A model generated the notes under the pieces. That model had not been told where the DNA came from and searched no databases. It saw only the letters and a program-made list of their open reading frames with translations. This document shows positions 9,492-35,214 of a stretch of DNA of 64,000 nucleotides, in pieces; position 1 is the first letter of the stretch, and the number at the start of each line of letters is the position of its first letter. The stretch comes from a virus. The stretch lies in the IMG/VR virus record IMGVR_UViG_3300045988_085140, one strand, 5' to 3'. Position numbers and translations under genes: made by a program.

Positions 9492-9516
9492 ATATATTAA
9501 TTTAAATTATTTAATT

Positions 9517-11608: not shown

Positions 11609-12796
11609 ATGAAAGCATCAGATATGTTACGAAACAACAATGGCTTGAAGACTACACAGAGTGTGCTCAACAAGCAGCAGAGTGGGGTGGATGCCGCTCA
11701 GAAGGTGGCACAGACTCAGGCTCCAGTCTTCACCCAGCAGCAACTTGATGCGGCTGGAAAGAAGGTTGACCAGATGAATGCTGCTACTCCCACCGATGAT
11801 GCTATGAAGGCGGCTAGGGCTAAGACTATCGCTACACAGCAAGCCATCGCCAATGGGGTGGACGTGAATCAGGGAGTGCCTAGTGATGAGGAGGATAAAC
11901 CATCTGTCCCTATCGTGAAGAAGGAAGAGCCTAAACCTCAGCCTAAGCAGTTGTCTTATGCTGATATGTATAAGATGCTGAATCCTGAACTGAATGAGAC
12001 TGCTGATCAGAAGGCGAACCGAGAGAAGAAGGAACGTACCAAGGCTCGTATCGCAGCTCTGGGTGATGGTCTCCGTGCGCTATCCAATATCTACTTTGCT
12101 ACAAAAGGTGCAAAGGTGGTACACAATCCTGAGTCGGATATGACTAAGGCGGTGAATAAACGCAAGGCATATATGGATGAGCAGAGAGAAAAGAATCGGG
12201 CATTATGGCTGGCTGGGTATCAGAGGGCACTCGCTCTTGATGAGGAAAAAAGAAAGAATAACCTGACTCTCGCTGAACTGGTGAGGTATCACGATATGCA
12301 GAACGAAATCAACAAGGTGAAGAATGGCCAAGGGCAGCAGAGAATTGACCAAGGTAACAGAAGACTTGAACTTAGTGAGTTGAAATATACCAATGATGCC
12401 GAGTATAAGGATAATCAGTTGAAGATTAAGAAGATGCTTGCTGATGGTCAGATAAGCCATTGGGCTGCTCAGGATGCACTTGCTAGACTGCGAGAAGGAC
12501 GAATTTCTAATAAGGCTCAGAAATCTTCTGGCGGTAATCAAACTACTGCTGGTTATTGGTATGAGTACTACGACCTGATGGACACTCCTGAGGGGCAGAA
12601 GAAGATTAATGAACTTAAAAGAAAGTTGAGAATCAAGAATGTTACTCAGACTAACGTGAGATATATTATGGATAGATTGAAAGGAAGAAGTAGTTCTGCT
12701 GGAGGTGGTAAACCGTCTGGTGGCGGCAAGCATACAACACATAAGGCTGGCGGTTCTTCGGCTGGTGGCAAGAAGAAGACTGGCGTAAAATGGTAA
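11609..12796 (+). CDS. Lys/Gln-rich putative internal virion protein
   Basis: 395 aa. Low-complexity basic C-tail SSSAGGGKPSGGGKHTTHKAGGSSAGGKKK. Confidence 0.45.
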   Translation: MKASDMLRNNNGLKTTQSVLNKQQSGVDAAQKVAQTQAPVFTQQQLDAAGKKVDQMNAATPTDDAMKAARAKTIATQQAIANGVDVNQGVPSDEEDKPSVPIVKKEEPKPQPKQLSYADMYKMLNPELNETADQKANREKKERTKARIAALGDGLRALSNIYFATKGAKVVHNPESDMTKAVNKRKAYMDEQREKNRALWLAGYQRALALDEEKRKNNLTLAELVRYHDMQNEINKVKNGQGQQRIDQGNRRLELSELKYTNDAEYKDNQLKIKKMLADGQISHWAAQDALARLREGRISNKAQKSSGGNQTTAGYWYEYYDLMDTPEGQKKINELKRKLRIKNVTQTNVRYIMDRLKGRSSSAGGGKPSGGGKHTTHKAGGSSAGGKKKTGVKW

Positions 12797-12836: not shown

Positions 12837-15800
12837 ATGGCAGAAAGACCATTATACACTTTATACAAGAATCTGAAAGCACAGAACTATGATGTGCCTG
12901 ATGATTACAATAAGTTTGAGAGTGCTCTGACAAGAGACGGAAAAGGTGGTGCGGATAACAGACATGCTATCTACGAGAACTTGAAGGCTCAGAACTTTGA
13001 TGTTCCATCAACTTATGAGCGTTTTTACTCTGCACTCTTTGAACCACGTAGTAAGACTTCATCTAGAGCGAAGGGCGGTAGTGTTCCTATGAGTGCTGCT
13101 GACCGTGCTCGTTTCTCTGCTGGGGCAGCAGCTATCTCGGCTAGTGCTCAGCAGACAATGAACAATGCTGGCAGATACAACAGACTGAAACAACGCAAGC
13201 AGAAACAGCAGAAGGATTTCGGTCGTGTGAACTTGGGTACACATCAGACTCCTTATGGTGGTGATGCAAACAATGTTGTGAAGGATGATTTTGCTTACAA
13301 TCCTGAGACTGGCAAGACTGGCGCATACGTTACATCGGACAATGAGAATGTTTATTCTCTTCCTGAAGCTGAGCAGAAACAAGCTATTCTTGACCAGCAA
13401 AACAATGCATATCAGGAAGCGGTAGATACTGGTGAGATACCATCTGCCTTTGATGTTCGTGACAAGAAAGGTAACTATGACTTGCAGGATAACATCGGCA
13501 AGAATGGAACCTACCTTACTGAGGAAGGTGCTCAAAAGCAGTTTGACAAGAAATTGGCTGATGCCTATGCCCGAAAGAAGGAGATTGAAGCTCTTATCGC
13601 TGAGGATAATCGCCAACACGGAAATCCTTTGCTCTCTTATGGTGCTAGTATCGGTGCAAGTAACGGAAGAACTGCTGAGCAGAGTGACTATAGAAATAAG
13701 TTGGCAACCTCTCTTTCTCTGGTTACTGAGCAGATTGGAGCGCTTGAAGCGGTGAAACAATATCCTACAAGTAGCTGGGGTGAGGATGCCTTGAAGGCTC
13801 TTGACAATACTGCATTTACTGCAAAAACATGGGATTTCGGTCTGACTGACTTCGCTATCATGGGGCAGATGGAACGTATCAAGACAAAGATGGATAACAA
13901 TATTCCTCTCTCTGGTTCTGATAAGATGCTCCTGAAGAGTAAACTTGGTGCGGATGCTGCTACGGCTATCGAAGATGAGAAGATGGGTAACGTCTATCGT
14001 TGGACGAAAATTGCAGGGAAGAGTCTCCCATTTATGGCTGACTTCTTCCTGACTGGCGGTTATGGTGGTATTACCAAGGGCATCAGTCGTGGAGCCTTGA
14101 AATTTGCTGCTAAACGTGGCATGGGCAAGGTGAGTGCTGCCATCTTGAAGAATACTGGTATCGTGGCTGGCGATGTTATCGGCTCGTATGCAATGGCTGG
14201 AACTGAGCAAGCGTTGAAGACTGGTGCTGACATCATGCAGCGACATCTTGGTAATCTGTATCAGGATGAGAAGGGTGATTATAAGTTTGGTACTTTCGAT
14301 GAGAATGGAAATCTTCTGCATGAGGGTGGTGAGTCTATTGGTACTGCTCTCTATAAGGGTATGACCTCTGCTATGGTAGAGAACTATACAGAAAAACTTT
14401 TCGGTCACAACTATGGTATCAAGAAGGGTGCTGTCAACTTCATGGAGAAACATGGTATGAATGCTTCTGCTGAGTTCTTCAAGAATATCGGCAAGAGTGG
14501 ATGGTACACCAATTCCAAGAAGTGGATGGAGAAGTTCGGTATCAATGGTTTCGCTGAGGAAGTGATGGAGGAGGAAATTGGTATTCCTCTTCATGCCCTG
14601 CTGGATGGTGAAGGTAAGGTGAGCGACCTTCTTGATGCTAAGCAGCAACTCGACATCATCGGTGGTATGGCTATCTCGGTCGGTTCTATGTATGCGATGG
14701 GTGCTGGCTCCCGACCAGTAAAAGGTATCTACAATCGTGCTCAGTACTACCGATTCCGCAACAAGGTGAACGTGGCTGATAGTGATGCAGAGAACCTTAT
14801 GGGCGATAACTGGGCAGACATCAAGGATAAGATAGACAACGCAACTAATGAGCAGATGGGTAGTGTGCTGGCTGATATTCTCAGACAGAGAGATACCATG
14901 ACCAAGGAACAGATTAATGCTGCTGTTAACTATGGTGTAAACCTGATGAAGATGCGTGGCTACAATATTGCCAAGACTGCTGAAATGAATGCCAAGGAGA
15001 TTACCAACGAACCAACAACACCTGAGGAGCAGCATCAGGCAGATATTGACAACGCTTATTCTGAGGGGCATGATGCTGATGATGCAGATAAGCATGATAT
15101 TCAGATTCAGCAGGAAGACCAGATGAAGACTCTTGCAGCAGCATTGGGTATCTCTGAGCAGCAGTTATCAGCCATGAGCGATGAGGAACTGGAATCCCTG
15201 ACTGGGCAGGATGATAAACTTGACCAAGCTATCTATGACTACCAGTTGTCTTCTGCCCGATACCAAGGTGTGGTTGATGATGCACAAGATAAGGTTGACC
15301 TCGCTGCACATCAGGCAGAACAGAGAGTTGATATGTACACAGACCAGAGTCGTGGTTCTGTTCGTAACGCTACTATCAAAGCATCAGGCGGCTTGGAAGA
15401 CTATGGTGTATATATTATCAGTGGTAATATTGCTACTCATGATGATGGCTCCATTGATGTAAGCAATAGCGATGATATGATTCTCTATTATGACCCGACA
15501 ACCAATAGCGTTGAACATGCTGATGCGTTGATGGTCGCTGAACTGGGTGAAGAACTACCTGCTGATGATGTGAAGGCTCAGGCGGTATCTGATGCTAAAG
15601 AGAATGCTATCAAGGAAGTGGCTGGCATCATTGATGGAACCGTTGAAGTTGGCTCCCAGTTCAATGTGACTGATACTGATGGTACTGAACATACCTATGA
15701 AGTGTTGGCTGACTATGGTGATGGTACTGCTGCTATTTCTATAGATGGTAACGTGGTGGAGAATCCTTATTCGCTTGCAGACTTGCAGCAGATGAAAGAC

Positions 15801-18800
15801 TTGGAAGACCAGAAGAGACTGGAAGCTGCCAAGGCTGAGCGTGAGCAGATGGAGAAAGAACGTGCTGCTCAGCAGAATCAGGAGACTGAGCAGACTCAAC
15901 CTTCATTTGACTTCAATCAGATTCTCAATGATAATGGTAACGTGGTGCTCGTTGATGTGCTCGACAAGGATGGTAATACCAAATACCCTGACTCTAGATT
16001 ATTCCTTATCCGTGATGCTGGTGCTAAAGCTAAGGTAGTTGAGTTGAAGAGTGATGGTACTCTTGTTCCTCATGCTGTGAACAAAGAAGATGTGGCTACA
16101 ATCTCTTCTATGTCGCTCGATGAATACAAACAAGCTATGCCTGAATCCTCAATGATTGAGGATAATAGTGGAGAGAATAGAGGTGAGATAGAGGTGGAAG
16201 CTCCGACAATAGAGGGCGAGGTCGCGGCTCCTGTTAATGAGGTCGCGGCTCCTGAATCTGCTGAGACTCCTGCAACTGAGCAGACTCCTGCTGCTCCTGC
16301 CATTACTCTTGAAGATGGAACCATCGTGCCTATGCTGGAGGATGGCAATCCTGACTTCTCGAAGCTGACTGCCGCACAGACTGCTGAGCTATATGATAAT
16401 CAGTTTGGTGAGGATGCAGATAGTATCGTATCTGGATATGTGTCTGATGCAAAGAAGGCACTCGACAAGGCTAGCAACATGACCGTGAAGGGCAAGACTT
16501 TCGTGGAACAGAAGGCTGCTAAGGATGCCAAGGAGAAGGCTATTGCTGATGCTAAGGCGGCTTATGACTCTGCTATCGCTATCCGTGATGCTTATAATGA
16601 GCGACAACTTGCCAAGGTGGAAGATACTGCTGAGGGTAGAAAGGAACTCATTGAGAAGGCAAGAAGAAAGTTCGCTCGCTTGAAGAGTGCGGTGAAGGAT
16701 GATGCTGAGGCGGTGGCTCAAATCTATAAGGAGACGGTTGGAACTCTGCTGCATCGTCTGTATGATGGTACTGGCATTGACGTGACAGATACGATTCCGC
16801 TTACTGCCGAGGAGTATGTGGCTAGTAACCTCGGTGCTCACTCTCTCAACTATGAGGGAACAGAGACAAGTAAGGGCGTTAAGCAGGAGACTGGATTGAG
16901 TAGAGAAGACTTTGCCAAGACTCAGTTGCTCGCTGCTGATGGCAATGGAACTACTATTGATGAGCTCGTTCATAGTCTGTGGGAGAATCGTCCATCCAAC
17001 CTTGAATCACTAGACACTCAGGATATTCGTAATGCTCTTATCAGTGTACTCAATAGCGGTTTCAAGGCATCGGAAGCAAGGAATTTTGTTGAAAATATTC
17101 GCATTGCTCAGGCAGAGAACATACTTGAAGAGCAGAAACGTGCTCAGGAGAATGCAGCCTATGCTGAGCAGCACAAGGCTGAGCAAGAGGCCGAGTTGAA
17201 GGCGAAGTCGGATGAAAAGGCTGAGTTGAAGGCGAAGTCAGAAGCGAAGTCGGATAATGAATCGGATAATAAATCTGATGATTTGTCTAATGAAACGGAT
17301 AATGATAAGATAAATGACAATATAAATGATAATATAAATGTTCCTGAGGATGCTACTGATGAGAATCCTTTAGGCGCAGAGCGTGATGAATCTGACCTTC
17401 CTTTCTCTACCAAGGAGAATGGCAAGCAGCAGACAACTGCCGAGCGTGCTGCTGACGTAGAGAAGAATAAGGTGGATGATATGAAGGTCGTTGACAATAT
17501 CGTGGGCGAGAAGACTCGCAAGGCTTTCGAGAGACTGGCTAAGATGATGGGTGCTAACATTCAATGGCAGTACTCAGACAAGTTGGGTAACGGCTGGATT
17601 CAGGAGACTACGGATGCCGATGGCAACGTTCATCGTACAATTTTCATCACTCTTGACTCTTCTATCACGGAAGGTGCTCAGTTTATCTTCGGTCACGAAA
17701 TGACTCACCAAATCAAGAACCTGAACCCTGCTGCATACAATGAGTTGACTCAGCTTGTGCTTGATACCTATGGCTCTGATGCCTTCGACAAGGCGGTAGA
17801 TGAGACTATGCAGAGATATTCCGATGCAGGATTCTCTGGACGTGCTAGAGATTACTATGCTGAGGAGGTTGTTGCTGATGCGGTAGGCGAAATGATTCGT
17901 GACCTCAACTTGGCTCATACTCTCGCCATGAAGATGTCTCATCCTCTGCTCGCTGCTATCCATGAGATATTACAGAAGATTAAGTTGGCATTCTTTGGTA
18001 CTGAGTATAGCGATGTGACCAAGAACATCATCCGCTCCATTGAACAAGCATACGTGAAGACTGCCAATGGTCAGGTGACAAACTCCGAGACTGGCGAAGA
18101 TGTTTCATTCTCTCTACGTCAAAAGCCTGAACCTAAGAAGAAGGGTATCGGATATAAGGTATTTGTGCTAAAGGATGGTAAACTCTATCCTCCGATGGTA
18201 GCGAACCCTGACGGTGCAGAAACCCCAGTCGGTGTGTGGCTCGATGCTGATGCGGCTCCTATTGCTGGAGAAAGCAAGACTGGCAGACCTCAGGTTAAGC
18301 AGGGCGGTAAGGGAACACAAGGGGGTAGCGGTAAGCTAGCCTATAGACCAGGCTGGCATCTTGGTGTCGTGCCTTACGCTATCCAGTTCAATCGCAAGGA
18401 TGCTGAGGGCAACAAGACTCTCTTCCCAAAGAACTTCGTTTTCGCTGAGGTGGAGTATGCTGCTGATGTAGATTATCAGGAGGAAGCTCGCCAAGAGGGT
18501 ATCAATCCATCGGGCAAGTATCAGCATTCATTGGCTGGCTTGAAACATCTGCCTACTGATGGATATTATATGTATCGTACCAACCCGAACCCTGAGACTG
18601 ACCCTTGGGTGATTACTGGTGCGATGAAGGTGAACCGTATCTTGACCAGAGCAGAGCAAGCGGAACTTGTGAAGAACGCTGGTCGTGAACCTCAGCAGAT
18701 TCAGGAGGGCGATATTGTTACTGATGATGTCGTGAACAGCATCAATCAGGAGATAGCTGATGCTCCTAAGTTCTCGTTGAAGGATAATCAGGAGAATCCT

Positions 18801-21800
18801 CTGAATCAGGATGGTACTTTGAAACTGGATAAGATTAAGTCCGTTGATGAATTGACGGATGAAGACTTCACTAGTGCCTTTCGTAATGTAGAGCTTCCTG
18901 CTATACCAAAGAATGTGGATGCTGCTATAGGGGCAAACGGAAAGCCTATTGTTATCAAGAAGAATATTTTTGAGAAGAATTGGAATGCTCACAAGTTTAC
19001 TCCTGCTGAAAGCAAAAAGGTATTGAATGATGCTTTATACAATACTGATTTAGTAAGGCACACACAGCCAACAAAGAAGCCTAACCATTGGGTTGCAATC
19101 AAGTTGGATGATAAAAGTCCTATCACCGTGTTGGAAGTAAACGACAACAAGAATAATGTTGAAGTTGTTGGTTGGTATACACTTGATGAAAGAAATCTTG
19201 GGAGAATAAAAAGACAAGCTGAACGAAATGGCGGCGAACTCATTATGTTAACTCCTAAAGATGATAAGGTGGAAAGCCTTTCCACTCCTCCGCTCAGCTC
19301 TGCTGCAAATATAATCAATTCTTTTGAAACTACCAAGGAAAATGGCGAAAAAGTTGATGTTGAGGGCACAAAATTCTCATTGAAAGATGAAGAATACCTG
19401 AAAGCGGTGGAAGATGGCAATATGGAAAAGGCTCAGAAGATGGTGAATGAAGCTGCTGATGCTGCTGGCTATTCTACAGATTCCAGCTATCAAGGTACAT
19501 CTGCCTTCAATGGTGCTGCACCTTGGGGTAATGGTTACTTCTTGACAAAGGACGAACGCAAGGAGGCATGGGATAATGGCGAGTTTGAAGGTGAATCAAC
19601 TCTTGGTGATTATATCAATGATGATATTGATGGCGGCAACTTGGAGGAGTTGACTAATGCCGCATCTTATCGTGCAGCTGACCCTATGCGTAAGGAGGCT
19701 ATTGATAACGTTCGTAATGCTATTCAGAAGAAAGCTAAGACTATTACAATGTATCGTAGTGTTCCTTCTGATGTGAAGGAAGGTTCTTTCCGAAATGGTG
19801 ACTGGGTTACTCCAAGTCGTGCTTATGCTGTTGATAATGCAAAATTGCATGGATGGGGTGACGATTACAACATCATCGAACAAAAAGTTCCTGTTGATGA
19901 TGTGTGGTTTGATGGCAACGATATTGCAGAATGGGGCTATGGTCGTGAGGAAGATTATATCAATGATACAGACTTCGCCTATAAGAACAGCAAGAACAAC
20001 AAAAAGTTGCTTGATGCCGTTACCTATGATGATAATGGTAATGTGATTCCTTTGTCTCAGAGATTCAATGAGAAGAATAAGGATGTGCGTTTCTCTTTGA
20101 AGGATGAAAAAACTCTTGCAGGAGTGCATAACATTACTGAGGAGAAACTGAGAAAGGCTTTGAAGCTGGGTGGCTTTGCCAATCCTTCTTTAGCTGTAAT
20201 TGATACCAACAAGACTGGTCACGACAACTTTGGAGAGATTTCCTTCATCGCTCCTTCTGCCCTTTTGGATAAGCGTACTGGCAATACTGGTGGTACATGG
20301 ATAACTGATGCCTATACTCAGCGTTATCCTTCCGTAGAGCGAGAAATGAGCGAAAAGGGGTATCGGAAGTTTGAAGACTGGGTTGATAGCCTTGATTACC
20401 CAAGTGGAGCTAAGGCTGAGATTGAGAGACAGGCAAAGGATGCCCTAAGTGACAATAATGCTCCTGCTTGGGAGTTGATGTACTTGAAGGAAAAGGGTAT
20501 TGATATTAAGGAGTATGATTCAAGAATTGATTATCGCTGGAAAGAGATTATCAGTGACCATCCTACTGCCGAGGATATTTTGAATAGTATGAAGACTGAC
20601 CCTGAACTGAATGAAAAGGTTACAAGTCTGGCTAAGCATGCCATCATCCATCCTACTTGGGAAAAGGTTTCTTTGGAGGTGAGAAGAAAGATGTATAAGG
20701 AGACTGGCGTTAAGGCTAGCCCTATCAATCCACAAGTAAGAAAACAGACTAAGGAAATCTTTGAGCGTGACTATGCGCCAACCTTGCTTAACAAGGACGG
20801 CAGTCCAAGAAAAAAAGATGTGAAGAAGGTTGTTGAGGATATTGTGAAGGAACATAAAGATACCAAGAAGTATGACTTCTATCTGTCTAAGGTGAAGGCT
20901 AGTAATTACGTCAACAAGAATGGTCTTTATGATGATTACATCAGATGGCAGGAGAACAAACTGGATGAGTTCGGAACGAAGAACCGTATCTTCCGTGGCT
21001 ATACTAGGGATGGTTCCCGAAAGTATGTGCCTGAGACTCTTGAAAATGTTTCAAAGGCTATGAGGGAAGAAGCAGATGGGCAGACCAATGGAAGCGAATA
21101 TACCTCGTTTGGTAGCTTTATCGCAAAGTTGGCTAGTCGTGTTGATTCTACAGACGAAATGCGTGCCAACAAGGATAAGTTGTCTTCTAATAAGGATAAG
21201 GAAGAATTTTACGAGAAATGGAGTGATGTTTATTATGACCTTGCCAAGTTCTTGTATAATGATGTGTTCTATGGTGAGCAGAGACTTCACGATATTGTAT
21301 TGCAGTCTGACCCTAAGAAGTATGCCAAGAAAGAATATGGCATTACCCTTACTCCTACCTTCATGAAGAAACTGGATGCCTTGAAGAATGCAGTACAGAC
21401 AGAGTTGAAGAGTGCGTACTTTGAGACTAAGTACAACAGACCTCTCCGTCTAAACGAGTTTGCTGCTGCTGTGGTTCCTGATAACTTGGGCAAAGATGTA
21501 CGCAAGGGTATAGAGAATGCTGGCTTACCAATGTATGACTACGACCCGAATAAGGAAGGTGACCGCAGTCGTGCTTTCAATGAAGCTATCAATAGTAGCG
21601 ACAATATCCGGTTCTCTCTCGCTGGTGTGCGTGGTGCGGCTGCTGCTGACAAGGCAGAGGAGCGTAATGCTCGTATGGATAATCTCTCCGTGGCTCGCAA
21701 GATGGAAGAAGAGAAGAAAGATGCCAAGGCTATCAAGATGGCTACTGGATGGGAGCGTGGTGCTGATGGCAAGTGGAGATACGAAATGCCTGATGCCAAG

Positions 21801-24800
21801 ATAAAGGACACGATGGACGTAGGCGGTGGACACATCGTTAAGCGTTACGAGGATGATATGCTCTGGAATGGCGGCAAACTATTTGATGTGATTGATGCAC
21901 CTGAATTATTTAAGGCTTATCCTCAGTTGAAGGGTGTTCGTATTGATACGGATGCCATTATGAACGATATGCCTTCACATGGTGAATATGATTCAAAAAC
22001 CAACACCATAACCATTCATGCTGATGAGTTGAAATATATGAATGACATATTGAATCACGAGATTCAGCATGCTATTCAAGGTATTGAGGGATTTGCCACT
22101 GGAGGTAGTCCTACAACTATTAGAGGTGAAGTCAAGAAGAGGTTTAATGAGGTCACAAAACAGATTAAGCAGCTACGAGCAGAAGGTAAGGAAGATGAGG
22201 CGAAGGCTCTCATAGAGAAGAACAGAGGTCTTTATGATGCCTACATGAAGAATGATGATTTCAATAGCTACAAGTCACTTGCTGGCGAGGTGGAGGCAAG
22301 AAATGTGCAGGAAAGAATGAACATGACTCCTGAGGAGAGAAGAAAAACTCTCGCTGAATCTACTGAGGACGTGGCTCGTAAAGACCAGATTTTCTTGGGT
22401 GTGGGTGATGTGTCCTTCTCCCTCCGTGATATGGCTGACGGAAAGGAGAGTGGGGCGGCAGATATGGCTGAGGATTTGAAGAGTCTGAACACTCCTGATG
22501 AGGTGGATGATGCTATCAAGACTGCTATTGAGGATATGCCGAGCGGCTGGAAGATGGCTAACAAGAAGATGATTCATATTGCTCAGGCTCTGGGCGAGAA
22601 TCGCAAGGCAGAGATTGCTGGCGAGGAACCTAAATTCTCCCTGAAGGATGGCACTCTCATTAAGGCTGGAACATACTTTAGCGGTGGCGGTCTTGTTGAG
22701 GAAGGCTTGAAGGGTATCATCGACCCAGTGGTGGCAGTGGAGTATGATGAGAAGATAAGCGGCGTATATCGCAACAATTTCGGGCAGCACATCGTTACTG
22801 CTGATGTTCGTGATGTTGACCCTAAGGAGTTGGTTAAGCAGATAGATGGCGAGGTGGAGTACTTCCATGCCAGCCCAGTCTGCAAGAACTACTCTCAGGC
22901 AAAGAGTAACCATGCTGAGGTGGAACTTGACAAGGAGACTGCTGCTAGTACTGCCGAGTTTATCAATGCTATTAAGCCAAAGGTTGTGACCATTGAGAAC
23001 GTGAAGGGATATAAGGATTCCGAAGCGATGAAGACTATCACCGATGCTCTGGATGCCAACGGCTATACTTGGGATGCAGATGTGTATAATGCTGCTGACT
23101 ATGGCGGCTACACAAACCGAGAGAGATTGATTGTCCGTGCGGTTCGTGATGGTAAACTTCCTGCCAAGCCTGAGAAGATGGCACGCAAGAGCGGATGGTA
23201 TGAAGCTGTGGCTGATATTATCCCGACCTTGACAGAGAAGAAGAATGGTGTGGCTCCTTGGATGGATATTCGCTTGAAGGCTGATGGCATTGACTGGAGA
23301 AACATTGACAAGCCATTGTATGTGATGGGTAGTGCCTATGCTGACGGCAAGGTCCCTCATGCCTTCGCTGATGAACTGCTGCCAACACTCAGAACGAAGA
23401 GTGGTGATGTGATTGTGATGCCTGATGGTAAGGTATATCGTGCCATGGGAAGAGTGCTCGCAAGAGTATCAGGAGTGAGCGATGATTACAAGATGCCATT
23501 CTCCGAGAACCTGAGCCATATCATCATCGGCAACGGAATCCCTACCCAGTTGACGGAACATGTGATTGCTCCTCTGCTTACTGGCTCTGACCCTAAGTTT
23601 AGCATCCGTACCTATCATGGTACTGGTGCTAGCTTTGACAAGTTCGATTTCAGCCACATGGGTGAAGGCGAAGGTTCACAAGCATTTGGATGGGGTGGTT
23701 ATGTTACTAACTCTAAGGATATTGCTGAGGACTACACAAGACGTGCCAAGATAAGGAAAGATAATGACGGTTTTGAATTTGTGACAGATATGTCTGCCAA
23801 TAACAAAGATATGGTAAGACAATATATCTATAAATATAAAGATGTAAACAAGGGATTGGATGCTATGAGAAAAGACCTTTCTTCTGCTCTAGAAATGTTC
23901 CCTGATGATGATGATTTAAAGGAACTTAGCAATATTCTTGCAAAGAAGAATGAGGAAATAGCTGTTCCTGATAATATTGCTTATCTTTATGATGTGGATA
24001 TTCCTGATGATAATGGAGATTATCTTGACTGGGAGAATAAACTGAAAAAATCTCATTTGAATAAGGTAAATAAGGAGTTGGTTAGAATAGGCAAGGAGCC
24101 TATTGAGACCATTTATCCAAGTCGTGTTGATGGTAAGGTAAGAGGTCAAGACTTGTATGATGAACTTTCCTCTATGCTTGGTTCTAAAGAAGCAGCTAGT
24201 AAGTTGTTAAGTGATGCTGGCTTTGTTGGAATCAAGTACCCTGCTGGAACCATTTATGGCGGTGCAGAGGAAGGCGATTACAACTATGTGATATTCGATG
24301 AGACCAATGCCAATATCGTGGGTAATACCCGATTCTCCTTGCGCTATGACCAGTTTGAGCACGACCTGAACCAGTGGAAGAAGGATAATAATCTGCCAAA
24401 GGATGCTCAGAGGCCAACCATCCCACAACGCAACGCTGGTGAGAGTGCCGTTGACTTCCTGAGGAGAGTGGACGAGTACCGCAAACAGATGGCTCTGTGG
24501 AAGACTGCTCCAACCTACGAGCAGCATCTTCTAAGTGATGATACTGCCCTTGGAGAGTTCAACCGAGAGTTGCAGCGTGGTTCTGTTCTGAAACGTATCG
24601 CCTTCCAAGATAGTATGCTGGCTATCCGCAAGGCTCAGGAAGCTATCATGAAGGAAGTGGGTGTTGACCGTCTGAACATGGCTGAGGATGCCTATACTGC
24701 CGAGAACCGCAGTCACGGCAAGGGAAAGAACGAGTTTGAGGAATACAATAATGAGTTCTTGCAGCCATTGAGAAAGGCTTATCATCAGATGAAGAAGATA

Positions 24801-27800
24801 CTGGGTGACAGCTATGATAATGTCCGTATCTACATGATGGCTAAGCATGGCTTGGAGCGTGATTCTCAGATGGCTTTCAAAAAGTCTCTGGAAGCTGACT
24901 ATGAGGACGTGGCTCAGAGAAGTGCAGCATATAAGGCTTACAAAGGCGATATGAACCGTATCATCAATGATAGCGACTTGGAGTTTGGTAGAGTAGACTT
25001 CACTACTTGGAGACAGAGAGACAATGCACTCAGGGCGAAATATTCTCCATCTTATATGAACTATCGCTACGACAAGAATGGTATTGCCTACGATTACTCA
25101 GGTTTGTCTGCTCTCTTTGACGGCTCAGACTTTGAGGAAGCTGCCTACAAACTGGTAAAGGATATTGAGGATAAGTATGTAACCGAGACTCACAACCTCT
25201 GGGATGCAACGAATGCGGCTACCAAGAAGATTCTCCGTGATGGCTATAAGGCTGGCATGATGAGCAAAGATACTTATCAGTATGTGCGTGATATGTATAG
25301 CCATTATATTCCTCTCCGTGGCTGGTATGGCACTACTGCCGACCAAGTATGGGACTATATTGGTGGTGGAAAGGGTGCGTTCAATCAGACCTTGAAGAAG
25401 GCACACGGACGAACCTCTATCGCTGATGACCCTATCGCCTACATCGAGAATATGGCAGAGAGTGGAATCCTGCTGAACAACAAGAACTGGGTGAAACAAC
25501 ACCTGATGCTCTTGGCTCAGAATCATCCAACTTCCCTGCTGACCCTGAGCAAGGCTTGGTATGTGAAGAGTACGGATGCCAACGGCAACGAGGAGTGGAT
25601 TCCTGCTACACCTCAGATTACTTCTCAGATGGATAGCAATCAGGTGAAGGCTGCCATTGATGCTTTCGAGAAGAAGATGGAGCAGATGGCTCAGGCTGGC
25701 GATGCTACTCAGAAGAGAGACGGATTGAACATAGCCTATCCTCAGACTCACAGCGAGGAGAGAGAACATGAGGTGCGAGTGATGAAGGATGGCGAGGAAT
25801 ATGTTATCTATGTGAATGGTGACCCTCAGTTGGCTCAGGCGATGAATAATACCAGAGCACACCGAGTAAGAGAGATTCAGAGCGGTAAACTTGATAGGGC
25901 TGCTGCTTGGTTGGGCAGAAAGATGGCTGCTGCCTATACCAGTCTTTCACCTCTCTTCATTCCTTCCAACTACTTCCGAGACCTGACCATGACGCTGGCA
26001 TCTACAGCTATCCGTGAGGATGCAAAGTACAACTATCTGCTCAGAAAGAATCTGGCTACCTCTTGGAATCTCGGATTCATGCTGAGAGATTTTCAGAACG
26101 GAAAGTTGAGAGATAAGGTAAACAACGGAAACGCTACACCAAAGGAACAGATGTTCTATGACTTCATGATGAATGGTGGTGAAACTGGCTTTGTCTCTTC
26201 GCTTGACGTGGAAGACTTGAAGAAGAAATTCAAGAACGACTTGAAGGATTTGGATAGATGGAAGGCGAACCCAGTAAAGGTAGGACATACCATTATGGAT
26301 AGCATTGAGTTCCTGAACAGAGCAATTGAGGATAGTAACCGATTTGCGGTTTACATGACCTCCATTCAATATGGGCGTTCTATTGATGAGGCTGTGAATG
26401 ATGCCAAGAATGTAACATTGAACTTCAACCGCAAGGGTACTGGCGAATATGGCTGGCAGATGATTAGAAACCTCTATCTCTTCATCAACCCAGCAGTACA
26501 GAGTTTGCAGACTTTGGGTGCGCTTGCTAAGCATCATCCATTCAAGTTCACGGCTGTTACTGCATCGTGGTTGGCGAGTGGTGTACTGGTTCCTATCGTT
26601 AACGCTGCCCTGATGAGTATGTTGGGTGGTGATGATGATAAGGATAAGTACTGGCAGTTCACCAAGTGGGATAGAAGAAACAACCTGATTATGTGGGTTC
26701 CGTTTACTCATGAGTATGTGAAGATTCCGCTTGCTCAGGAGTTCCGTGCCTTCTATGGAATAGGCGATATGATTGCATCTAAGATGATGGGTGGCGAGTT
26801 GGCTGAGGAAAGTTGGAGCCAGTATGCAGAAGATTTGCTCGGTCAGGTAGTGGATATGCTTCCGCTTGACCCTACTGGCTATGATGGCAATATTGCTGTC
26901 AGTCTGATGCCGAATGCTATTCGACCAGTCTTTGAGTTGGCTTTCAATGTTGACTTCACTGGCAAGCCATTATTCAAGGACACAGAGTACAACAAGTATG
27001 ACCCTAACTTTACCAAGGCATACGTGGGCACTCCTGATTGGTTGGTTCGTGCATCAAGGATGGTTAACTCAATCGGAAACGACTATCCAGATGTGCAGCA
27101 GAACAGCATTGATGCTTTCGGTGACCCAAGATACAATCTGAATAACCCTGCTGTGGTTGACCATGTATTGTCTTCTTATCTCGGTGGTGCTTACACCATG
27201 GGCAGTCAGGTGCTCGGTTTGCTTACCAAGTCGCTCAATGACCCGAAGGAAATTAAGGTGGCTGATATTCCATTATTCAGTAAGTTCGTCAGCAATCCTG
27301 ATGATAGACCGGTTACTAAGAAACAAGGTGATGAGTTCTGGAATATGAAGGAGAACCACGACCGTGCAGCCAATACCCTGAGCAAGTTGAAGAAACAAGC
27401 TAAGGTGGATGGCGATTACTCAATGCTGGAGCGGTTCTACGGCTCAGAGGAGTATAAGAAGTACAAGCAGGATGATGTGAAGGTGAAGAAGTATGAGGAA
27501 GACAAGAAGAAGGAACGTGCTGAGGAGAGTGGGGAGGAGTATAGACCTCACAAGTTGAATGCCGAGGATATATACAAGGCTCATGCTACTCCGAAGGATG
27601 ATTTCGAGGACTTGAAGCTGAAACAACTCTACACCAAACTGAACGGATTCAAGACTTCCTATGACCTCTTGGTTGATACGGCTCCTAGTCAGAGCGATGG
27701 CTACTACAACAACAACAAGGCTGCCATTGATGCCATTGACGAGATTTCCCTTGACAAGCAGGAGATTTCCGAGTTGAAGAAAGGTTTCTTGGATGATGGC

Positions 27801-27923
27801 AAGGATGCCTACAACGCTGAGGACATGAAGCAGATTCGTGACCTGAGAAAGAAGATTCTTTCCGTGCTGGAGAAGGCTAACAAGGTAGTTGTGGCTAACC
27901 AGAAGGCAAAGGCTAAGAAGTAA
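12837..27923 (+). CDS. Giant multidomain polyvalent protein (about 5,028 aa), probably packaged and ejected
   Basis: 15.1-kb uninterrupted ORF. Contains two HExxH modules, all C5-MTase motifs, a PARP-like H-Y-E pattern and C-terminal TM helices. ATG at 12837 preferred over TTG at 12816. Confidence 0.9.
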   Translation: MAERPLYTLYKNLKAQNYDVPDDYNKFESALTRDGKGGADNRHAIYENLKAQNFDVPSTYERFYSALFEPRSKTSSRAKGGSVPMSAADRARFSAGAAAISASAQQTMNNAGRYNRLKQRKQKQQKDFGRVNLGTHQTPYGGDANNVVKDDFAYNPETGKTGAYVTSDNENVYSLPEAEQKQAILDQQNNAYQEAVDTGEIPSAFDVRDKKGNYDLQDNIGKNGTYLTEEGAQKQFDKKLADAYARKKEIEALIAEDNRQHGNPLLSYGASIGASNGRTAEQSDYRNKLATSLSLVTEQIGALEAVKQYPTSSWGEDALKALDNTAFTAKTWDFGLTDFAIMGQMERIKTKMDNNIPLSGSDKMLLKSKLGADAATAIEDEKMGNVYRWTKIAGKSLPFMADFFLTGGYGGITKGISRGALKFAAKRGMGKVSAAILKNTGIVAGDVIGSYAMAGTEQALKTGADIMQRHLGNLYQDEKGDYKFGTFDENGNLLHEGGESIGTALYKGMTSAMVENYTEKLFGHNYGIKKGAVNFMEKHGMNASAEFFKNIGKSGWYTNSKKWMEKFGINGFAEEVMEEEIGIPLHALLDGEGKVSDLLDAKQQLDIIGGMAISVGSMYAMGAGSRPVKGIYNRAQYYRFRNKVNVADSDAENLMGDNWADIKDKIDNATNEQMGSVLADILRQRDTMTKEQINAAVNYGVNLMKMRGYNIAKTAEMNAKEITNEPTTPEEQHQADIDNAYSEGHDADDADKHDIQIQQEDQMKTLAAALGISEQQLSAMSDEELESLTGQDDKLDQAIYDYQLSSARYQGVVDDAQDKVDLAAHQAEQRVDMYTDQSRGSVRNATIKASGGLEDYGVYIISGNIATHDDGSIDVSNSDDMILYYDPTTNSVEHADALMVAELGEELPADDVKAQAVSDAKENAIKEVAGIIDGTVEVGSQFNVTDTDGTEHTYEVLADYGDGTAAISIDGNVVENPYSLADLQQMKDLEDQKRLEAAKAEREQMEKERAAQQNQETEQTQPSFDFNQILNDNGNVVLVDVLDKDGNTKYPDSRLFLIRDAGAKAKVVELKSDGTLVPHAVNKEDVATISSMSLDEYKQAMPESSMIEDNSGENRGEIEVEAPTIEGEVAAPVNEVAAPESAETPATEQTPAAPAITLEDGTIVPMLEDGNPDFSKLTAAQTAELYDNQFGEDADSIVSGYVSDAKKALDKASNMTVKGKTFVEQKAAKDAKEKAIADAKAAYDSAIAIRDAYNERQLAKVEDTAEGRKELIEKARRKFARLKSAVKDDAEAVAQIYKETVGTLLHRLYDGTGIDVTDTIPLTAEEYVASNLGAHSLNYEGTETSKGVKQETGLSREDFAKTQLLAADGNGTTIDELVHSLWENRPSNLESLDTQDIRNALISVLNSGFKASEARNFVENIRIAQAENILEEQKRAQENAAYAEQHKAEQEAELKAKSDEKAELKAKSEAKSDNESDNKSDDLSNETDNDKINDNINDNINVPEDATDENPLGAERDESDLPFSTKENGKQQTTAERAADVEKNKVDDMKVVDNIVGEKTRKAFERLAKMMGANIQWQYSDKLGNGWIQETTDADGNVHRTIFITLDSSITEGAQFIFGHEMTHQIKNLNPAAYNELTQLVLDTYGSDAFDKAVDETMQRYSDAGFSGRARDYYAEEVVADAVGEMIRDLNLAHTLAMKMSHPLLAAIHEILQKIKLAFFGTEYSDVTKNIIRSIEQAYVKTANGQVTNSETGEDVSFSLRQKPEPKKKGIGYKVFVLKDGKLYPPMVANPDGAETPVGVWLDADAAPIAGESKTGRPQVKQGGKGTQGGSGKLAYRPGWHLGVVPYAIQFNRKDAEGNKTLFPKNFVFAEVEYAADVDYQEEARQEGINPSGKYQHSLAGLKHLPTDGYYMYRTNPNPETDPWVITGAMKVNRILTRAEQAELVKNAGREPQQIQEGDIVTDDVVNSINQEIADAPKFSLKDNQENPLNQDGTLKLDKIKSVDELTDEDFTSAFRNVELPAIPKNVDAAIGANGKPIVIKKNIFEKNWNAHKFTPAESKKVLNDALYNTDLVRHTQPTKKPNHWVAIKLDDKSPITVLEVNDNKNNVEVVGWYTLDERNLGRIKRQAERNGGELIMLTPKDDKVESLSTPPLSSAANIINSFETTKENGEKVDVEGTKFSLKDEEYLKAVEDGNMEKAQKMVNEAADAAGYSTDSSYQGTSAFNGAAPWGNGYFLTKDERKEAWDNGEFEGESTLGDYINDDIDGGNLEELTNAASYRAADPMRKEAIDNVRNAIQKKAKTITMYRSVPSDVKEGSFRNGDWVTPSRAYAVDNAKLHGWGDDYNIIEQKVPVDDVWFDGNDIAEWGYGREEDYINDTDFAYKNSKNNKKLLDAVTYDDNGNVIPLSQRFNEKNKDVRFSLKDEKTLAGVHNITEEKLRKALKLGGFANPSLAVIDTNKTGHDNFGEISFIAPSALLDKRTGNTGGTWITDAYTQRYPSVEREMSEKGYRKFEDWVDSLDYPSGAKAEIERQAKDALSDNNAPAWELMYLKEKGIDIKEYDSRIDYRWKEIISDHPTAEDILNSMKTDPELNEKVTSLAKHAIIHPTWEKVSLEVRRKMYKETGVKASPINPQVRKQTKEIFERDYAPTLLNKDGSPRKKDVKKVVEDIVKEHKDTKKYDFYLSKVKASNYVNKNGLYDDYIRWQENKLDEFGTKNRIFRGYTRDGSRKYVPETLENVSKAMREEADGQTNGSEYTSFGSFIAKLASRVDSTDEMRANKDKLSSNKDKEEFYEKWSDVYYDLAKFLYNDVFYGEQRLHDIVLQSDPKKYAKKEYGITLTPTFMKKLDALKNAVQTELKSAYFETKYNRPLRLNEFAAAVVPDNLGKDVRKGIENAGLPMYDYDPNKEGDRSRAFNEAINSSDNIRFSLAGVRGAAAADKAEERNARMDNLSVARKMEEEKKDAKAIKMATGWERGADGKWRYEMPDAKIKDTMDVGGGHIVKRYEDDMLWNGGKLFDVIDAPELFKAYPQLKGVRIDTDAIMNDMPSHGEYDSKTNTITIHADELKYMNDILNHEIQHAIQGIEGFATGGSPTTIRGEVKKRFNEVTKQIKQLRAEGKEDEAKALIEKNRGLYDAYMKNDDFNSYKSLAGEVEARNVQERMNMTPEERRKTLAESTEDVARKDQIFLGVGDVSFSLRDMADGKESGAADMAEDLKSLNTPDEVDDAIKTAIEDMPSGWKMANKKMIHIAQALGENRKAEIAGEEPKFSLKDGTLIKAGTYFSGGGLVEEGLKGIIDPVVAVEYDEKISGVYRNNFGQHIVTADVRDVDPKELVKQIDGEVEYFHASPVCKNYSQAKSNHAEVELDKETAASTAEFINAIKPKVVTIENVKGYKDSEAMKTITDALDANGYTWDADVYNAADYGGYTNRERLIVRAVRDGKLPAKPEKMARKSGWYEAVADIIPTLTEKKNGVAPWMDIRLKADGIDWRNIDKPLYVMGSAYADGKVPHAFADELLPTLRTKSGDVIVMPDGKVYRAMGRVLARVSGVSDDYKMPFSENLSHIIIGNGIPTQLTEHVIAPLLTGSDPKFSIRTYHGTGASFDKFDFSHMGEGEGSQAFGWGGYVTNSKDIAEDYTRRAKIRKDNDGFEFVTDMSANNKDMVRQYIYKYKDVNKGLDAMRKDLSSALEMFPDDDDLKELSNILAKKNEEIAVPDNIAYLYDVDIPDDNGDYLDWENKLKKSHLNKVNKELVRIGKEPIETIYPSRVDGKVRGQDLYDELSSMLGSKEAASKLLSDAGFVGIKYPAGTIYGGAEEGDYNYVIFDETNANIVGNTRFSLRYDQFEHDLNQWKKDNNLPKDAQRPTIPQRNAGESAVDFLRRVDEYRKQMALWKTAPTYEQHLLSDDTALGEFNRELQRGSVLKRIAFQDSMLAIRKAQEAIMKEVGVDRLNMAEDAYTAENRSHGKGKNEFEEYNNEFLQPLRKAYHQMKKILGDSYDNVRIYMMAKHGLERDSQMAFKKSLEADYEDVAQRSAAYKAYKGDMNRIINDSDLEFGRVDFTTWRQRDNALRAKYSPSYMNYRYDKNGIAYDYSGLSALFDGSDFEEAAYKLVKDIEDKYVTETHNLWDATNAATKKILRDGYKAGMMSKDTYQYVRDMYSHYIPLRGWYGTTADQVWDYIGGGKGAFNQTLKKAHGRTSIADDPIAYIENMAESGILLNNKNWVKQHLMLLAQNHPTSLLTLSKAWYVKSTDANGNEEWIPATPQITSQMDSNQVKAAIDAFEKKMEQMAQAGDATQKRDGLNIAYPQTHSEEREHEVRVMKDGEEYVIYVNGDPQLAQAMNNTRAHRVREIQSGKLDRAAAWLGRKMAAAYTSLSPLFIPSNYFRDLTMTLASTAIREDAKYNYLLRKNLATSWNLGFMLRDFQNGKLRDKVNNGNATPKEQMFYDFMMNGGETGFVSSLDVEDLKKKFKNDLKDLDRWKANPVKVGHTIMDSIEFLNRAIEDSNRFAVYMTSIQYGRSIDEAVNDAKNVTLNFNRKGTGEYGWQMIRNLYLFINPAVQSLQTLGALAKHHPFKFTAVTASWLASGVLVPIVNAALMSMLGGDDDKDKYWQFTKWDRRNNLIMWVPFTHEYVKIPLAQEFRAFYGIGDMIASKMMGGELAEESWSQYAEDLLGQVVDMLPLDPTGYDGNIAVSLMPNAIRPVFELAFNVDFTGKPLFKDTEYNKYDPNFTKAYVGTPDWLVRASRMVNSIGNDYPDVQQNSIDAFGDPRYNLNNPAVVDHVLSSYLGGAYTMGSQVLGLLTKSLNDPKEIKVADIPLFSKFVSNPDDRPVTKKQGDEFWNMKENHDRAANTLSKLKKQAKVDGDYSMLERFYGSEEYKKYKQDDVKVKKYEEDKKKERAEESGEEYRPHKLNAEDIYKAHATPKDDFEDLKLKQLYTKLNGFKTSYDLLVDTAPSQSDGYYNNNKAAIDAIDEISLDKQEISELKKGFLDDGKDAYNAEDMKQIRDLRKKILSVLEKANKVVVANQKAKAKK
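12861..13037 (+). repeat. Coding tandem repeat at the giant-protein N-terminus
   Basis: LYKNLKAQNYDVPDDYNKFESAL and IYENLKAQNFDVPSTYERFYSAL, 36 codons apart. Confidence 0.6.
17190..17340 (+). repeat. Coding low-complexity repeats (AELKAKS x2, SDN, NDNIN)
   Basis: GAGTTGAAGGCGAAGTC occurs twice; GATAATATAAATG-type repeats follow. Confidence 0.6.
17490..18035 (+). other. Giant-ORF module: zincin metallopeptidase 1
   Basis: FIFGHEMTHQIKN, with the HEMTH codons at 17694-17708. Downstream EEVVADAVGE could supply the third ligand. Confidence 0.55.
18108..18770 (+). other. Giant-ORF module A: conserved YKVF.LKDGKLYPPMV...AYRPGWH...YRTNPN domain, function unknown
   Basis: Bounded by FSLRQ (18108) and FSLKD (18771). 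Confidence 0.4.
18771..19373 (+). other. Giant-ORF module B: possible barnase/EndoU/RelE-like (PBECR-type) nuclease module
   Basis: KPIVIKKNIFEKNWNAHKFTPAESKKVL...HWVAIKL. Tentative resemblance only. Confidence 0.25.
19374..20090 (+). other. Giant-ORF module C: unknown (MYRSVPSD...GDWVTPSRAYA...IAEWGY)
   Basis: Bounded by FSLKD motifs. An R-S-E ART-like reading is possible but weak. Confidence 0.25.
20091..21611 (+). other. Giant-ORF module D: unknown conserved module (LAGVHNITEEKLRKALKLGGFANPSLAVID...)
   Basis: Bounded by FSLKD (20091) and FSLAG (21612). Confidence 0.3.
21612..22415 (+). other. Giant-ORF module E: zincin metallopeptidase 2
   Basis: ATGWERGADGKWRYEM...ILNHEIQHAIQGIEGFA...LAGEVEARNV, with the HEIQH codons at 22056-22070. 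Confidence 0.55.
22635..23597 (+). other. Giant-ORF module G: complete C5 DNA cytosine methyltransferase
   Basis: Motif I YFSGGG, II AVEYD, IV ASPVCKNYS (Cys codon at 22881), VI TIENVKGY, VIII TNRERL, IX YRAMGRVLARVSG, X IIGNGIP. Confidence 0.8.
23598..24332 (+). other. Giant-ORF module H: PARP-like (H-Y-E) ADP-ribosyltransferase-fold candidate
   Basis: TYHGTGASF, GWGGYVT and DYNYVIFDE parallel the PARP motifs HGS / G.G.Y.A / Y.E.IVY. Confidence 0.35.
24333..27920 (+). other. Giant-ORF C-terminal module of about 1,190 aa with predicted TM helices
   Basis: Hydrophobic stretches near 25900-26010 and 26470-26630 (NLYLFINPAVQSLQTLGALA...WLASGVLVPIVNAALMSMLGG). Lys/Glu-rich tail. Confidence 0.4.
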
Positions 27924-27935: not shown

Positions 27936-27968
27936 TATCCCCTGAAAGTGCTATGCTTTCGGGGGATA
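27936..27968 (+). terminator. Strong hairpin terminator after the giant ORF
   Basis: TATCCCCTGAAAG-TGCTATG-CTTTCGGGGGATA. Confidence 0.65.
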
Positions 27969-35212: not shown

Positions 35213-35214
35213 AT

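Follow-up and report, generated by a model that had tools for sequence, protein, structure and literature searches.

In the current view, no other phage molecules meet host defences earlier than polyvalent proteins do, and it is a question how a chain of 4,000–6,000 amino acids is converted into working enzymes. The question arises for a single gene in a 64,000-nucleotide (nt) stretch of viral DNA (IMG/VR virus record IMGVR_UViG_3300045988_085140, the whole of which is referred to here as the window). The gene takes up about a quarter of the window, far exceeds every other open reading frame (ORF) in it and encodes a polypeptide of 5,028 amino acids (aa), hereafter called the giant. The locus offers a concrete, testable rule for dividing such a chain: a specific peptide is paired with a specific candidate protease, the polarity is fixed, and exact coordinates can be given for the nine products predicted. 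We consider it an evenly balanced proposition that the giant is a virion-packaged ejection protein, made of a constant chassis and exchangeable cargo, which processes itself at repeated delimiter peptides by means of a candidate metallopeptidase of its own, zincin 1.

The delimiter, a peptide of the form [KRS]-F-S-[LI]-[KRA], was present in nine copies in the giant, at aa 1758, 1979, 2180, 2419, 2926, 3194, 3267, 3588 and 3833, compared with about 0.4 copies expected from the composition of its relatives; all copies lay within aa 1758–3833. A six-frame search elsewhere in the window, covering stop-free stretches of at least 100 aa, returned one antisense match only. A set of 201 relatives contained 606 copies, 17 times the expectation, with K, R or S at position −1, K or R at position +3 and variable flanks. 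Codon usage differed among the copies (TCT, TCG, TCA, TCC or AGC for the serine; CTA, TTG, CTC, CTG or ATC for the leucine or isoleucine), indicating that conservation acts on the peptide and not on the DNA. Pfam domains in the giant began 3–15 aa past the preceding delimiter, and cutting the sequence at the motif gave the chassis, the cassettes M1 to M8 and a C-terminal unit, M9. At three junctions in the giant of one relative (L009; aa about 3005–3025, 3196–3216 and 5136–5156) a near-identical linker, NVDN[FS]SE[TS][ST]K..[GE]EKFSL[KR], was shared, so some linkers may be duplicated along with the motif and could act as recombination substrates.

The candidate protease closes the chassis. Across 21 sequences reaching down to 25% identity, the invariant columns of zincin 1 were FGHExxH, one Tyr, EExxAD and one Gly, and the form HEMTH was retained in 71 of 71 close relatives. 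These columns are the signature of a Glu-zincin (gluzincin). An AlphaFold2 model based on the 21-sequence alignment (predicted local distance difference test, pLDDT, 80.5; predicted template modelling score, pTM, 0.73) started with a helix and three strands, after which came the helix with HExxH and, later on, another helix with EExxAD; the 30 residues after the domain, including delimiter 1, were predicted to be disordered (pLDDT ~40 at aa 1745–1775). Foldseek searches of this model against BFVD gave matches (E 1e-6 to 1e-3) to domains in other phage polyvalent proteins that are otherwise unannotated, one of which was labelled IrrE N-terminal-like, a metallopeptidase family. Modelling of zincin 1 and M1 together from nine sequences reached a pLDDT of 44, and a Foldseek search of that model was meaningless; profiles of alignments A1 and A2 found nothing meaningful in the PDB, and a homology search seeded with zincin 1 recovered 11 short fragments only.

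A second HExxH domain, zincin 2, lies in cassette M5. HE[IVML]QH was conserved almost throughout a set of 43 homologous segments, with one lacking it in the aligned range, and GEVEA was present in most of them; the only family matches, to DUF6782, SprT-like and DUF2268 peptidases, were sub-threshold, recurring in several members. Alignment of zincin 2 to zincin 1 with hhalign gave a probability of 88% (E 3e-6) over the sheet and the active-site helix. Zincin 2 was present in 9 of 17 giants with at least three copies of the strict motif; of the two, only zincin 1 belongs permanently to the chassis, and zincin 2 behaves as an exchangeable cassette. The initial annotation had put forward the two zincins from the motifs HEMTH (nt 17694) and HEIQH (nt 22056); both motifs were confirmed, but neither domain has a significant counterpart among Pfam peptidase families or among peptidases of solved fold. 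PF18819, considered in relatives as a polyvalent metallopeptidase, was rejected, being MuF_C and mapping to other cassettes, and hence no Pfam peptidase backs either zincin.

Co-occurrence of motif and zincin 1 was scored in 104 giants of more than 3,000 aa that share the chassis (representatives at 50% identity), using the relaxed motif [KR][FYL]S[LI][KR]. The 21 giants with zincin 1 carried 123 motifs against 1.8 expected, with at least two per protein, and the 83 giants without it carried four against 6.2 expected, with at most one per protein; members that initially appeared discordant use Y or L in place of F. A Fisher test of this association gave p = 4e-16, a value not to be taken at face value given shared descent. 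The motif is also strictly polar in zincin-1 carriers, with no copy upstream of the domain (36,070 residues) and 137 downstream of it (72,285 residues), and in most carriers the last copy stands ~1,191–1,211 or ~1,351–1,407 aa from the C-terminus. Polarity and conservation at the peptide level are stronger arguments than co-occurrence.

The segments between delimiters are exchanged as units. Relatives cut at the motif gave recurring cassette lengths of 221, ~200, 171, 215, 233–235, 268, 321 and ~507 aa, while the order and number of cassettes differed on a near-constant N-terminal part. On the upstream side of a breakpoint in delimiter 2, which follows AAG TTC TC / AAGTTCTC, 60 of 60 nt were the same in the window and in relative L003; from the next base on, identity fell to ~30%, and the swap was visible in the proteins as well. 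Cassettes are exchanged between related phages exactly at the delimiter motif, so that the set of cargo changes rapidly and the chassis stays almost constant. The most conserved cassette was M1, near-invariant in alignment A1 and placed directly after zincin 1 in most relatives; M6 directly preceded the methylase cassette in relatives wherever the next cassette was readable, and the commonest cassette in relatives was of the M8 type.

Two explanations of the motif have to be weighed. That it is the cleavage site of zincin 1, as the anatomy of the protein suggests, we put at slightly short of an even chance. The principal alternative, a serious one that we nevertheless think is probably not correct, retains the same protein class and delivery but leaves the chain uncut by zincin 1: the giant would act as a tethered multi-enzyme chain, zincin 1 would be an effector directed against host proteins, and the motif would be a cassette-boundary element, which could be an in-frame recombination joint (cf. 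VENN/pre-toxin motifs), a short strand with which the fold of every cassette begins or the target of some other protease. A pure joint would be equally compatible with the sharp breakpoint, which is nucleotide-exact and falls inside the motif codons. The DNA common to the motif copies is, however, just ~5–8 nt with varying codons, too short for homologous recombination, so that its conservation must reflect selection on the peptide. The ART-PolyVal and PBECR5 Pfam domains begin three residues past the motif start, and the motif may accordingly belong to their fold, but it precedes unrelated folds (methylase, ADP-ribosyltransferase (ART), RNase, LPD13 and zincin), which makes a structural strand of each unlikely. 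Neither the strict polarity nor the restriction of the motif to carriers of zincin 1 has an obvious cause if it is a mere joint.

Beyond the breakpoint, several findings speak against a packaged, self-processing giant, and the first three of them equally favour the uncut chain. The presence of zincin 1 needs two changes on a neighbour-joining tree of the chassis, so its co-occurrence with the motif is shallow, reducing to ~2 evolutionary events, and the Fisher p overstates independence. Giants without zincin 1, among them gp55 of the cultured Bacteroides phage BKO1-TP3, have neither the motif nor the protease and presumably work unprocessed; recurrent 4-mers in zincin-free giants revealed no convincing alternative delimiter, although a gapped or degenerate motif could escape such a search. 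According to Iyer et al. (2017; PMC5512222), N4 virion RNA polymerase (vRNAP) and some plasmid polyvalent proteins are transferred as full-length chains. Zincin 1 itself had no match in Pfam at E ≤ 1 and none in the PDB by sequence profile, the best Foldseek hit to the PDB having an E of 0.2; the domain is assigned from its motifs, its topology and its resemblance to unannotated domains of other polyvalent proteins. Lastly, several relatives carry broken giant genes, indicating that an intact gene is not always maintained in prophages.

The cargo and the C-terminal unit place the giant in a known class. Five families matched above their Pfam gathering cut-offs: LPD13 (PF18825; aa 1991–2128, E 1.6e-41), PBECR5 (PF18814, a predicted RNase; aa 2422–2559, E 5.5e-20 to 4.8e-19), LPD23 (aa 2936–2989, E 4e-13 to 3.6e-12), DNA_methylase (PF00145; aa 3281–3577, E ~2e-28, 100 bits compared with a cut-off of 22, profile positions 7–319 of 324) and LPD38 (E 8.5e-23 to 1.5e-22). 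The first two give names to half of the four modules initially listed as of unknown or tentative function. Cassette M7 contains the catalytic motifs I, IV, VI, VIII and X of a methylase in translation (FSGGG, PVC, ENV, NRER and GNGIP), matched M.HhaI and M.HaeIII in the PDB and MTase_II in PADLOC (E 7e-31), and aligned to TIGR00675 over the N-terminal half only, below cut-off; it is a predicted C5 cytosine DNA methyltransferase. Searches of NCBIfam and PADLOC found nothing beyond the methylase. A PARP-like H-Y-E module had been proposed to start at nt 23598, and an ART-PolyVal (PF18760)/DUF3990-like start was indeed found there (aa 3591–3646, E 2e-5), with 'YHGT' and 'GWGGY' present, but the match scored 24–25.6 bits against a cut-off of 31.2 and covered 39 of 140 profile positions (8–46), the remainder being interrupted by an insert; M8 is a probable ADP-ribosyltransferase. 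LPD14 matched weakly at aa 546–628. The giant had no match to helicase or N6-methylase families, to SLT/LT or gp16 families (Pfam, PHROGs and NCBIfam) or to a MuF or portal-binding domain (Pfam).

The C-terminal unit matched phrog_14770 with an E of 2e-145 and recovered 337 phage records by tblastn (E down to 5e-108), including 933W and other Shiga toxin (Stx) phages, Ralstonia GP4, Burkholderia Bcep22-like phages, Vibrio phages and BKO1-TP3, whose gp55 was 32% identical over 80% of the query. The unit, ~1,196 aa with LPD38, lies where the initial annotation had placed a C-terminal region with transmembrane (TM) helices; one helix, not several, is convincing and TM-like, with its hydrophobic property kept in 150 homologues, and its neighbour is weak. 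At the other end, the chassis is ~1,750 aa long, nearly constant among relatives, and begins with two NLKAQN(Y/F)DVP copies (aa 12–21 and 48–57) in a region of ~120 aa conserved in distant giants (best stretch aa 3–117). It further contains a Gly-rich, weakly hydrophobic stretch at aa 388–645 (nt 13998–14771; 15% Gly compared with 7% overall) and an acidic, low-complexity stretch at aa 700–1540; homology in a search with aa 1–1200 centred on about aa 230–1050. Every landmark previously read from the letters was located in the translation.

Polyvalent proteins (Iyer et al., 2017) served to define four of the matched Pfam families; the class is recognised by at least two domains of a common repertoire in one polypeptide, here the five families above cut-off, by phage genes encoded beside virion or packaging genes, as is the case here, and by variable architecture, seen in relatives that are 95–98% identical in the chassis and carry differing cassette series. 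Iyer et al. (2017; PMC5512222) list LPD38 as occurring in polyvalent proteins of the phage type only, and the LPD38 giants share with the window a homologous C-terminal unit and two preceding small internal-virion genes in a podovirus module. Very probably the giant is packaged and belongs, as a polyvalent/ejection protein, to the LPD38 giant family, and the earlier view of it as one polyvalent polypeptide with several counter-defence enzymes, encoded beside internal-virion genes, is supported by the Pfam families and the gene context. It is the third gene of a tight plus-strand block, and the two genes ahead of it, previously taken as putative internal-virion genes, are the gp14-like gene and that of the 395-aa protein, in the same order as in BKO1-TP3 and JC1. 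Packaging in the capsid and exit at infection are inferred from homologues. We regard it as very unlikely that the giant is instead an unpackaged, cytoplasmic multi-enzyme protein of the prophage or of lytic growth, serving self-methylation, superinfection exclusion or host takeover. Such a role would suit the missing match to a MuF or portal-binding domain and the soluble anti-defence genes of the prophage, such as the Tad2-like one, but the giant shares one block with a T7-gp14-like gene, and its C-terminal unit is homologous to proteins detected in virions.

It is barely conceivable that the long frame arose as an artefact of assembly or belongs to a pseudogene in decay that is still open by chance. 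The translation has no internal stop, ATG 12837 is the start in relatives, whose residue 1 aligns to residue 1 of the giant, and Pfam and PHROG matches in one frame span aa 546–4901, from which it follows that the frame is coding over its entire length; the initially reported ORF of 5,035 codons was confirmed. So many open codons cannot persist by chance, and the catalytic motifs are intact. The full-length protein would have a predicted mass of about 560 kDa. Single ORFs of comparable size in independent assemblies and one cultured phage likewise exclude a chimera of this assembly: 5,452 aa in P0203 (N-terminus 97% identical to that of the giant), 5,823 aa in L009 (a metagenome-assembled genome of Prevotella sp. 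UBA746), more than 5,600 aa in L004 (an uncultured Prevotella contig) and 5,553 aa in BKO1-TP3. An artefact or decay would be in keeping with relatives that are broken and with protein-database entries for relatives that are mostly fragments. In L002 and L003 a single in-frame TAG within the ART cassette (L003 9992–9994) leaves ORFs of 4,286 and 1,287 aa; reports exist of S. copri phages in which the amber codon is reassigned (bioRxiv 10.64898/2026.08.21.746148). The zincin-2 cassette of L001 (about 9800–9910) was lost by an out-of-frame deletion, and in L005, from S. copri HDE04, the sole complete isolate genome, similarity to the giant stops at ~aa 4030 (about 15400), the truncated giant being followed by a 1,340-aa fibre-like ORF on the opposite strand.

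The giant is not extreme in size, as had been supposed: an exhaustive HMMER search with aa 1–1200 found 486 representative clusters, many of 4,000–6,743 aa, with lengths of 4,000–6,700 aa common in the family and dozens of relatives of 5,000–6,743 aa. A megablast search of the gene against phage genomes gave no match, and a PDB sequence search with the N-terminal half of the giant gave nothing. An antisense ORF (13059–15095, minus strand, 678 aa), codon-aligned with the giant coding sequence, was judged spurious; its composition, rich in L, S, I, T and C, is implausible, and the rarity of TTA, CTA and TCA codons in the giant (55 of 5,028, with none in 702 consecutive codons; p ~0.03) keeps it free of stops. 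In L001 a gene caller annotated this antisense ORF in place of the giant's N-terminus.

On the self-processing reading, the giant would be made late, together with the T7-gp14-like and 395-aa proteins, and packed inside the capsid, as homology and synteny suggest, and would leave through the tail at infection, with or before the DNA. The conserved ends, that is the chassis and the C-terminal unit with its hydrophobic helix and LPD38, would serve packaging, exit and envelope crossing. The middle is an array of interchangeable cassettes that would act as effectors on host defences and incoming DNA: M1, LPD13, M3, the PBECR5 RNase, LPD23 with zincin 2, the C5 methylase with its leader mini-cassette and the ADP-ribosyltransferase. 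Each cassette starts with [KRS]-[FYL]-S-[LI]-[KRA] after a flexible linker, and zincin 1 as the cognate protease would cut at these delimiters, most plausibly before the aromatic or Leu residue, a peptide such as ADAPKFSLKDNQ being a possible substrate. Zincins usually prefer a hydrophobic P1′ residue, with which a cut before F, Y or L would fit. Cutting would free up to nine products and leave the protease on the chassis. The resulting picture of a tailed-phage polyprotein, a ~560-kDa chain delivered by the capsid and cut by zincin 1 at nine [KRS]|[FYL]-S-[LI]-[KRA] sites to release anti-defence enzymes as a programmable, quickly reshuffled set, is one we judge somewhat less likely to be right than wrong. 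A cut at this position would further give each product a bacterial N-degron residue at its start, and this could make the effectors short-lived by design; the last point is pure speculation and improbable.

Coordinates of the giant gene, its parts and neighbouring features in the window.
Feature	Position (nt)	Strand	Basis or remark
Tyrosine integrase, Bacteroidota-type	5712–6923	−	
T7-gp14-like internal virion protein, 219 aa	10946–11605	+	First of three-gene ejection-protein block
395-aa protein, second internal-virion position	11609–12796	+	Position-based
Giant coding sequence, 5,028 aa	12837 (ATG)–27923	+	Open frame from TTG 12816, 5,035 codons
N-terminal tandem repeat LY.NLKAQN[YF]DVP..Y..F.SAL, two copies	12852–13040	+	Translation
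Conserved chassis core, aa 246–1422	13572–17102	+	Includes Gly-rich and acidic stretches
Zincin 1 (predicted), HExxH...EExxAD domain closing chassis	17502–18068	+	H1620, E1621, H1624, E1676/E1677, D1681
Delimiter 1, S-FSLR	18105–18119	+	Directly after zincin 1, predicted disordered segment
M1, aa 1758–1978	18108–18770	+	phrog_30118 E 2e-33, no assigned function
Delimiter 2, K-FSLK	18768–18782	+	Exact swap breakpoint relative to L003
M2, aa 1979–2179, LPD13	18771–19373	+	Pfam
Delimiter 3, K-FSLK	19371–19385	+	
M3, aa 2180–2418	19374–20090	+	No Pfam match at E ≤ 1
Delimiter 4, R-FSLK	20088–20102	+	
M4, aa 2419–2925, PBECR5 then ~365 residues without family	20091–21611	+	Pfam
Delimiter 5, R-FSLA (variant)	21609–21623	+	
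M5, aa 2926–3193, LPD23 then putative zincin 2 (HEIQH at aa 3074, GEVEARN)	21612–22415	+	Pfam and motif
Delimiter 6, S-FSLR	22413–22427	+	
M6 mini-cassette, aa 3194–3266 (73 aa)	22416–22634	+	Architectures of relatives
Delimiter 7, K-FSLK	22632–22646	+	
M7, aa 3267–3587, predicted C5 DNA methyltransferase	22635–23597	+	Pfam, PDB, PADLOC
Delimiter 8, K-FSIR	23595–23609	+	
M8, aa 3588–3832, ART-PolyVal/DUF3990-like	23598–24332	+	Sub-cut-off Pfam
Delimiter 9, R-FSLR	24330–24344	+	Opens C-terminal unit 1,196 aa from end, as in relatives
M9, aa 3833–5028, 1,196 aa, TM-like helix then LPD38	24333–27920	+	Pfam, PHROG, tblastn
TM-like helix, aa 4568–4600	26538–26636	+	Kyte-Doolittle 1.79
LPD38, aa 4603–4813	26643–27275	+	Pfam
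Terminator-like hairpin, 15-bp stem	27936–27968	+	13 nt past stop codon; sole such site in 27.6–32.4 kb

The window is a temperate podovirus-type prophage of Segatella (Prevotella) copri. The nearest genomes were the chromosome of S. copri HDE04 and uncultured Prevotella assemblies, 97% identical across the probe. Besides the genes in the table, the window encodes a Rha/Ant regulator, the large terminase (TerL), an SU10-type major capsid protein, an adaptor and a P22-type portal. The 219-aa protein matched Pfam T7_gp14 just below the cut-off (26.6 bits compared with 27; E 6.8e-6, profile positions 1–173 of 187) and was 58% identical to BKO1-TP3 gp57. The 395-aa protein had no Pfam, PHROG or NCBIfam match and weak same-position homologues in the Bacteroides phages BKO1-TP3 (gp56) and BS-TP4. 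The hairpin after the stop codon of the giant agrees with its earlier placement as last gene of an operon, yet plus-strand genes resume after a gap of 245 nt.

Some ~860 nt upstream of the ejection-protein block lies a gene for a Tad2-like (Thoeris anti-defence 2) protein of 204 aa (9472–10086, plus strand; Pfam E 4e-20), so that the phage additionally carries a soluble anti-defence gene. Ordinary phage genes of the plus strand include those of an RNase H-like protein (8338–9099; phrog_531, E 7e-36) and a candidate endolysin of glycoside hydrolase family 19 (46564–47112; Pfam E 4e-6), and two DUF7841 paralogues (31358–31816 and 45718–46236, plus strand; Pfam E 1e-23 and 5e-11) flank the morphogenesis genes. 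The block at 32000–36000 has a GC content of 0.30–0.35, compared with ~0.45 elsewhere, and carries minus-strand genes (32272–35212) that are tail-fibre or virion-structural-like; it looks like an exchanged host-range module. A further low-GC stretch lies at 54–60 kb. A tRNA-like gene (2408–2486, minus strand) was called by ARAGORN with a four-base anticodon (tatg) and its identity undetermined.

If the processing rule holds, a program could divide hundreds of metagenomic giants into their cargo, foreign proteins to be delivered by way of virions could naturally be inserted at the cassette borders, and the replacement of cassettes while the chassis hardly changes would provide a readable record of the arms race between gut phages and host defences. 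S. copri is a prominent human gut species, and its isolate HDE04 carries a related prophage. If the rule fails, the gene is one more member of a documented family. Delimiter-separated modules with a candidate built-in protease look new, the protein class being already known; no description of the delimiter, of a chassis-anchored HExxH domain without a curated family or of their coupling and polarity was found in the literature searched, the coverage of which was incomplete.

Polyvalent proteins as described by Iyer, Burroughs, Anand, de Souza and Aravind (2017, J Bacteriol, PMC5512222) draw on the same repertoire (LPD13, LPD23, LPD38, PBECR5, ART-PolyVal, DNA methylase and metallopeptidase) and, like the giant, are encoded beside virion genes in variable architectures, and their autoproteolysis by embedded metallopeptidases was predicted. 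They comprise 2–15 domains and were described with neither a cleavage site nor a boundary motif, and no account of linkers was found in that paper, whereas the giant has a fixed chassis, an HExxH domain outside Pfam and a repeated delimiter. The closest cultured relative is BKO1-TP3 gp55 (5,553 aa, PQ571269, annotated 'DarB-like antirestriction'), from a temperate Bacteroidota phage with a genome of ~65 kb and, as in the window, the gene order gp57, gp56 and giant gp55; the paper describing the phage (PMC12694917) does not discuss the giant protein. Only the ends of the two giants align, at aa 246–1422 (gp55 aa 196–1327; 25% identity) and aa 3904–4863 (32% identity), so that the protein consists of two conserved parts, the N-terminal chassis and the C-terminal unit, which enclose exchangeable cargo. 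In gp55 the middle 3,000 aa are unrelated and include a DEAH-type helicase motif, and gp55 has neither zincin 1 nor the delimiter.

JC1 gp69 (4,515 aa, LPD38 at aa 4195–4401) and its counterpart Bcep22 gp75 ('DarB-like antirestriction protein') also end a virion module, gp69 accounting for 22% of the JC1 genome, and in JC1 the giant is likewise preceded by two virion proteins (gp67, 196 aa; gp68, 510 aa) and carries LPD38 near its C-terminus. JC1 gp69 was found in CsCl-purified virions by mass spectrometry with 51 unique peptides, and gp68 is virion-associated (PMC9144972). JC1 gp69 differs from the giant in an N-terminal lytic transglycosylase, an N6-type methylase, a helicase and the Proteobacteria hosts, and BLAST detected no N-terminal similarity between the giant and JC1/Bcep22-like giants. 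In phi24B gp47 (2,811 aa) and 933W L0134, an LPD38 C-terminal region is homologous to that of the giant (~25% identity over ~590 aa). The phi24B protein was found in virions by mass spectrometry, where it is abundant, but is invisible in the cryo-electron microscopy map; its authors independently proposed a role in ejection, with the protein building a trans-periplasmic conduit (bioRxiv 10.64898/2026.04.10.717836). Half as large as the giant, it has LPD5, LPD1 and a domain called MuF-C metallopeptidase by the authors.

P1 DarB resembles the giant in being large and having a DNA methylase, and it is packaged in the capsid and protects incoming DNA from restriction. Its methylase is of the N6-adenine type and accompanied by a helicase, whereas the giant has a C5 methylase and no helicase match; 'DarB-like' is an annotation habit here, not orthology. 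The T7 gp14-gp15-gp16 ejectosome resembles the window in its three consecutive internal-virion genes of rising size, of which the first is gp14-like and the last the largest and enzymatic, but the giant has no detected sequence similarity to gp15 or gp16, has no lytic transglycosylase and is ~4 times the size of gp16.

Two further comparisons concern the delimiter. In viral polyproteins, one translation product is cut at repeated sites by an embedded protease, an arrangement that, to our knowledge, is not established for tailed phages. Polymorphic toxins exchange variable modules at a border that is recognisable by a short conserved peptide (VENN in CdiA, PxxxxDPxGL in Rhs), and they have one border and one variable tip; the giant has nine such borders in series.

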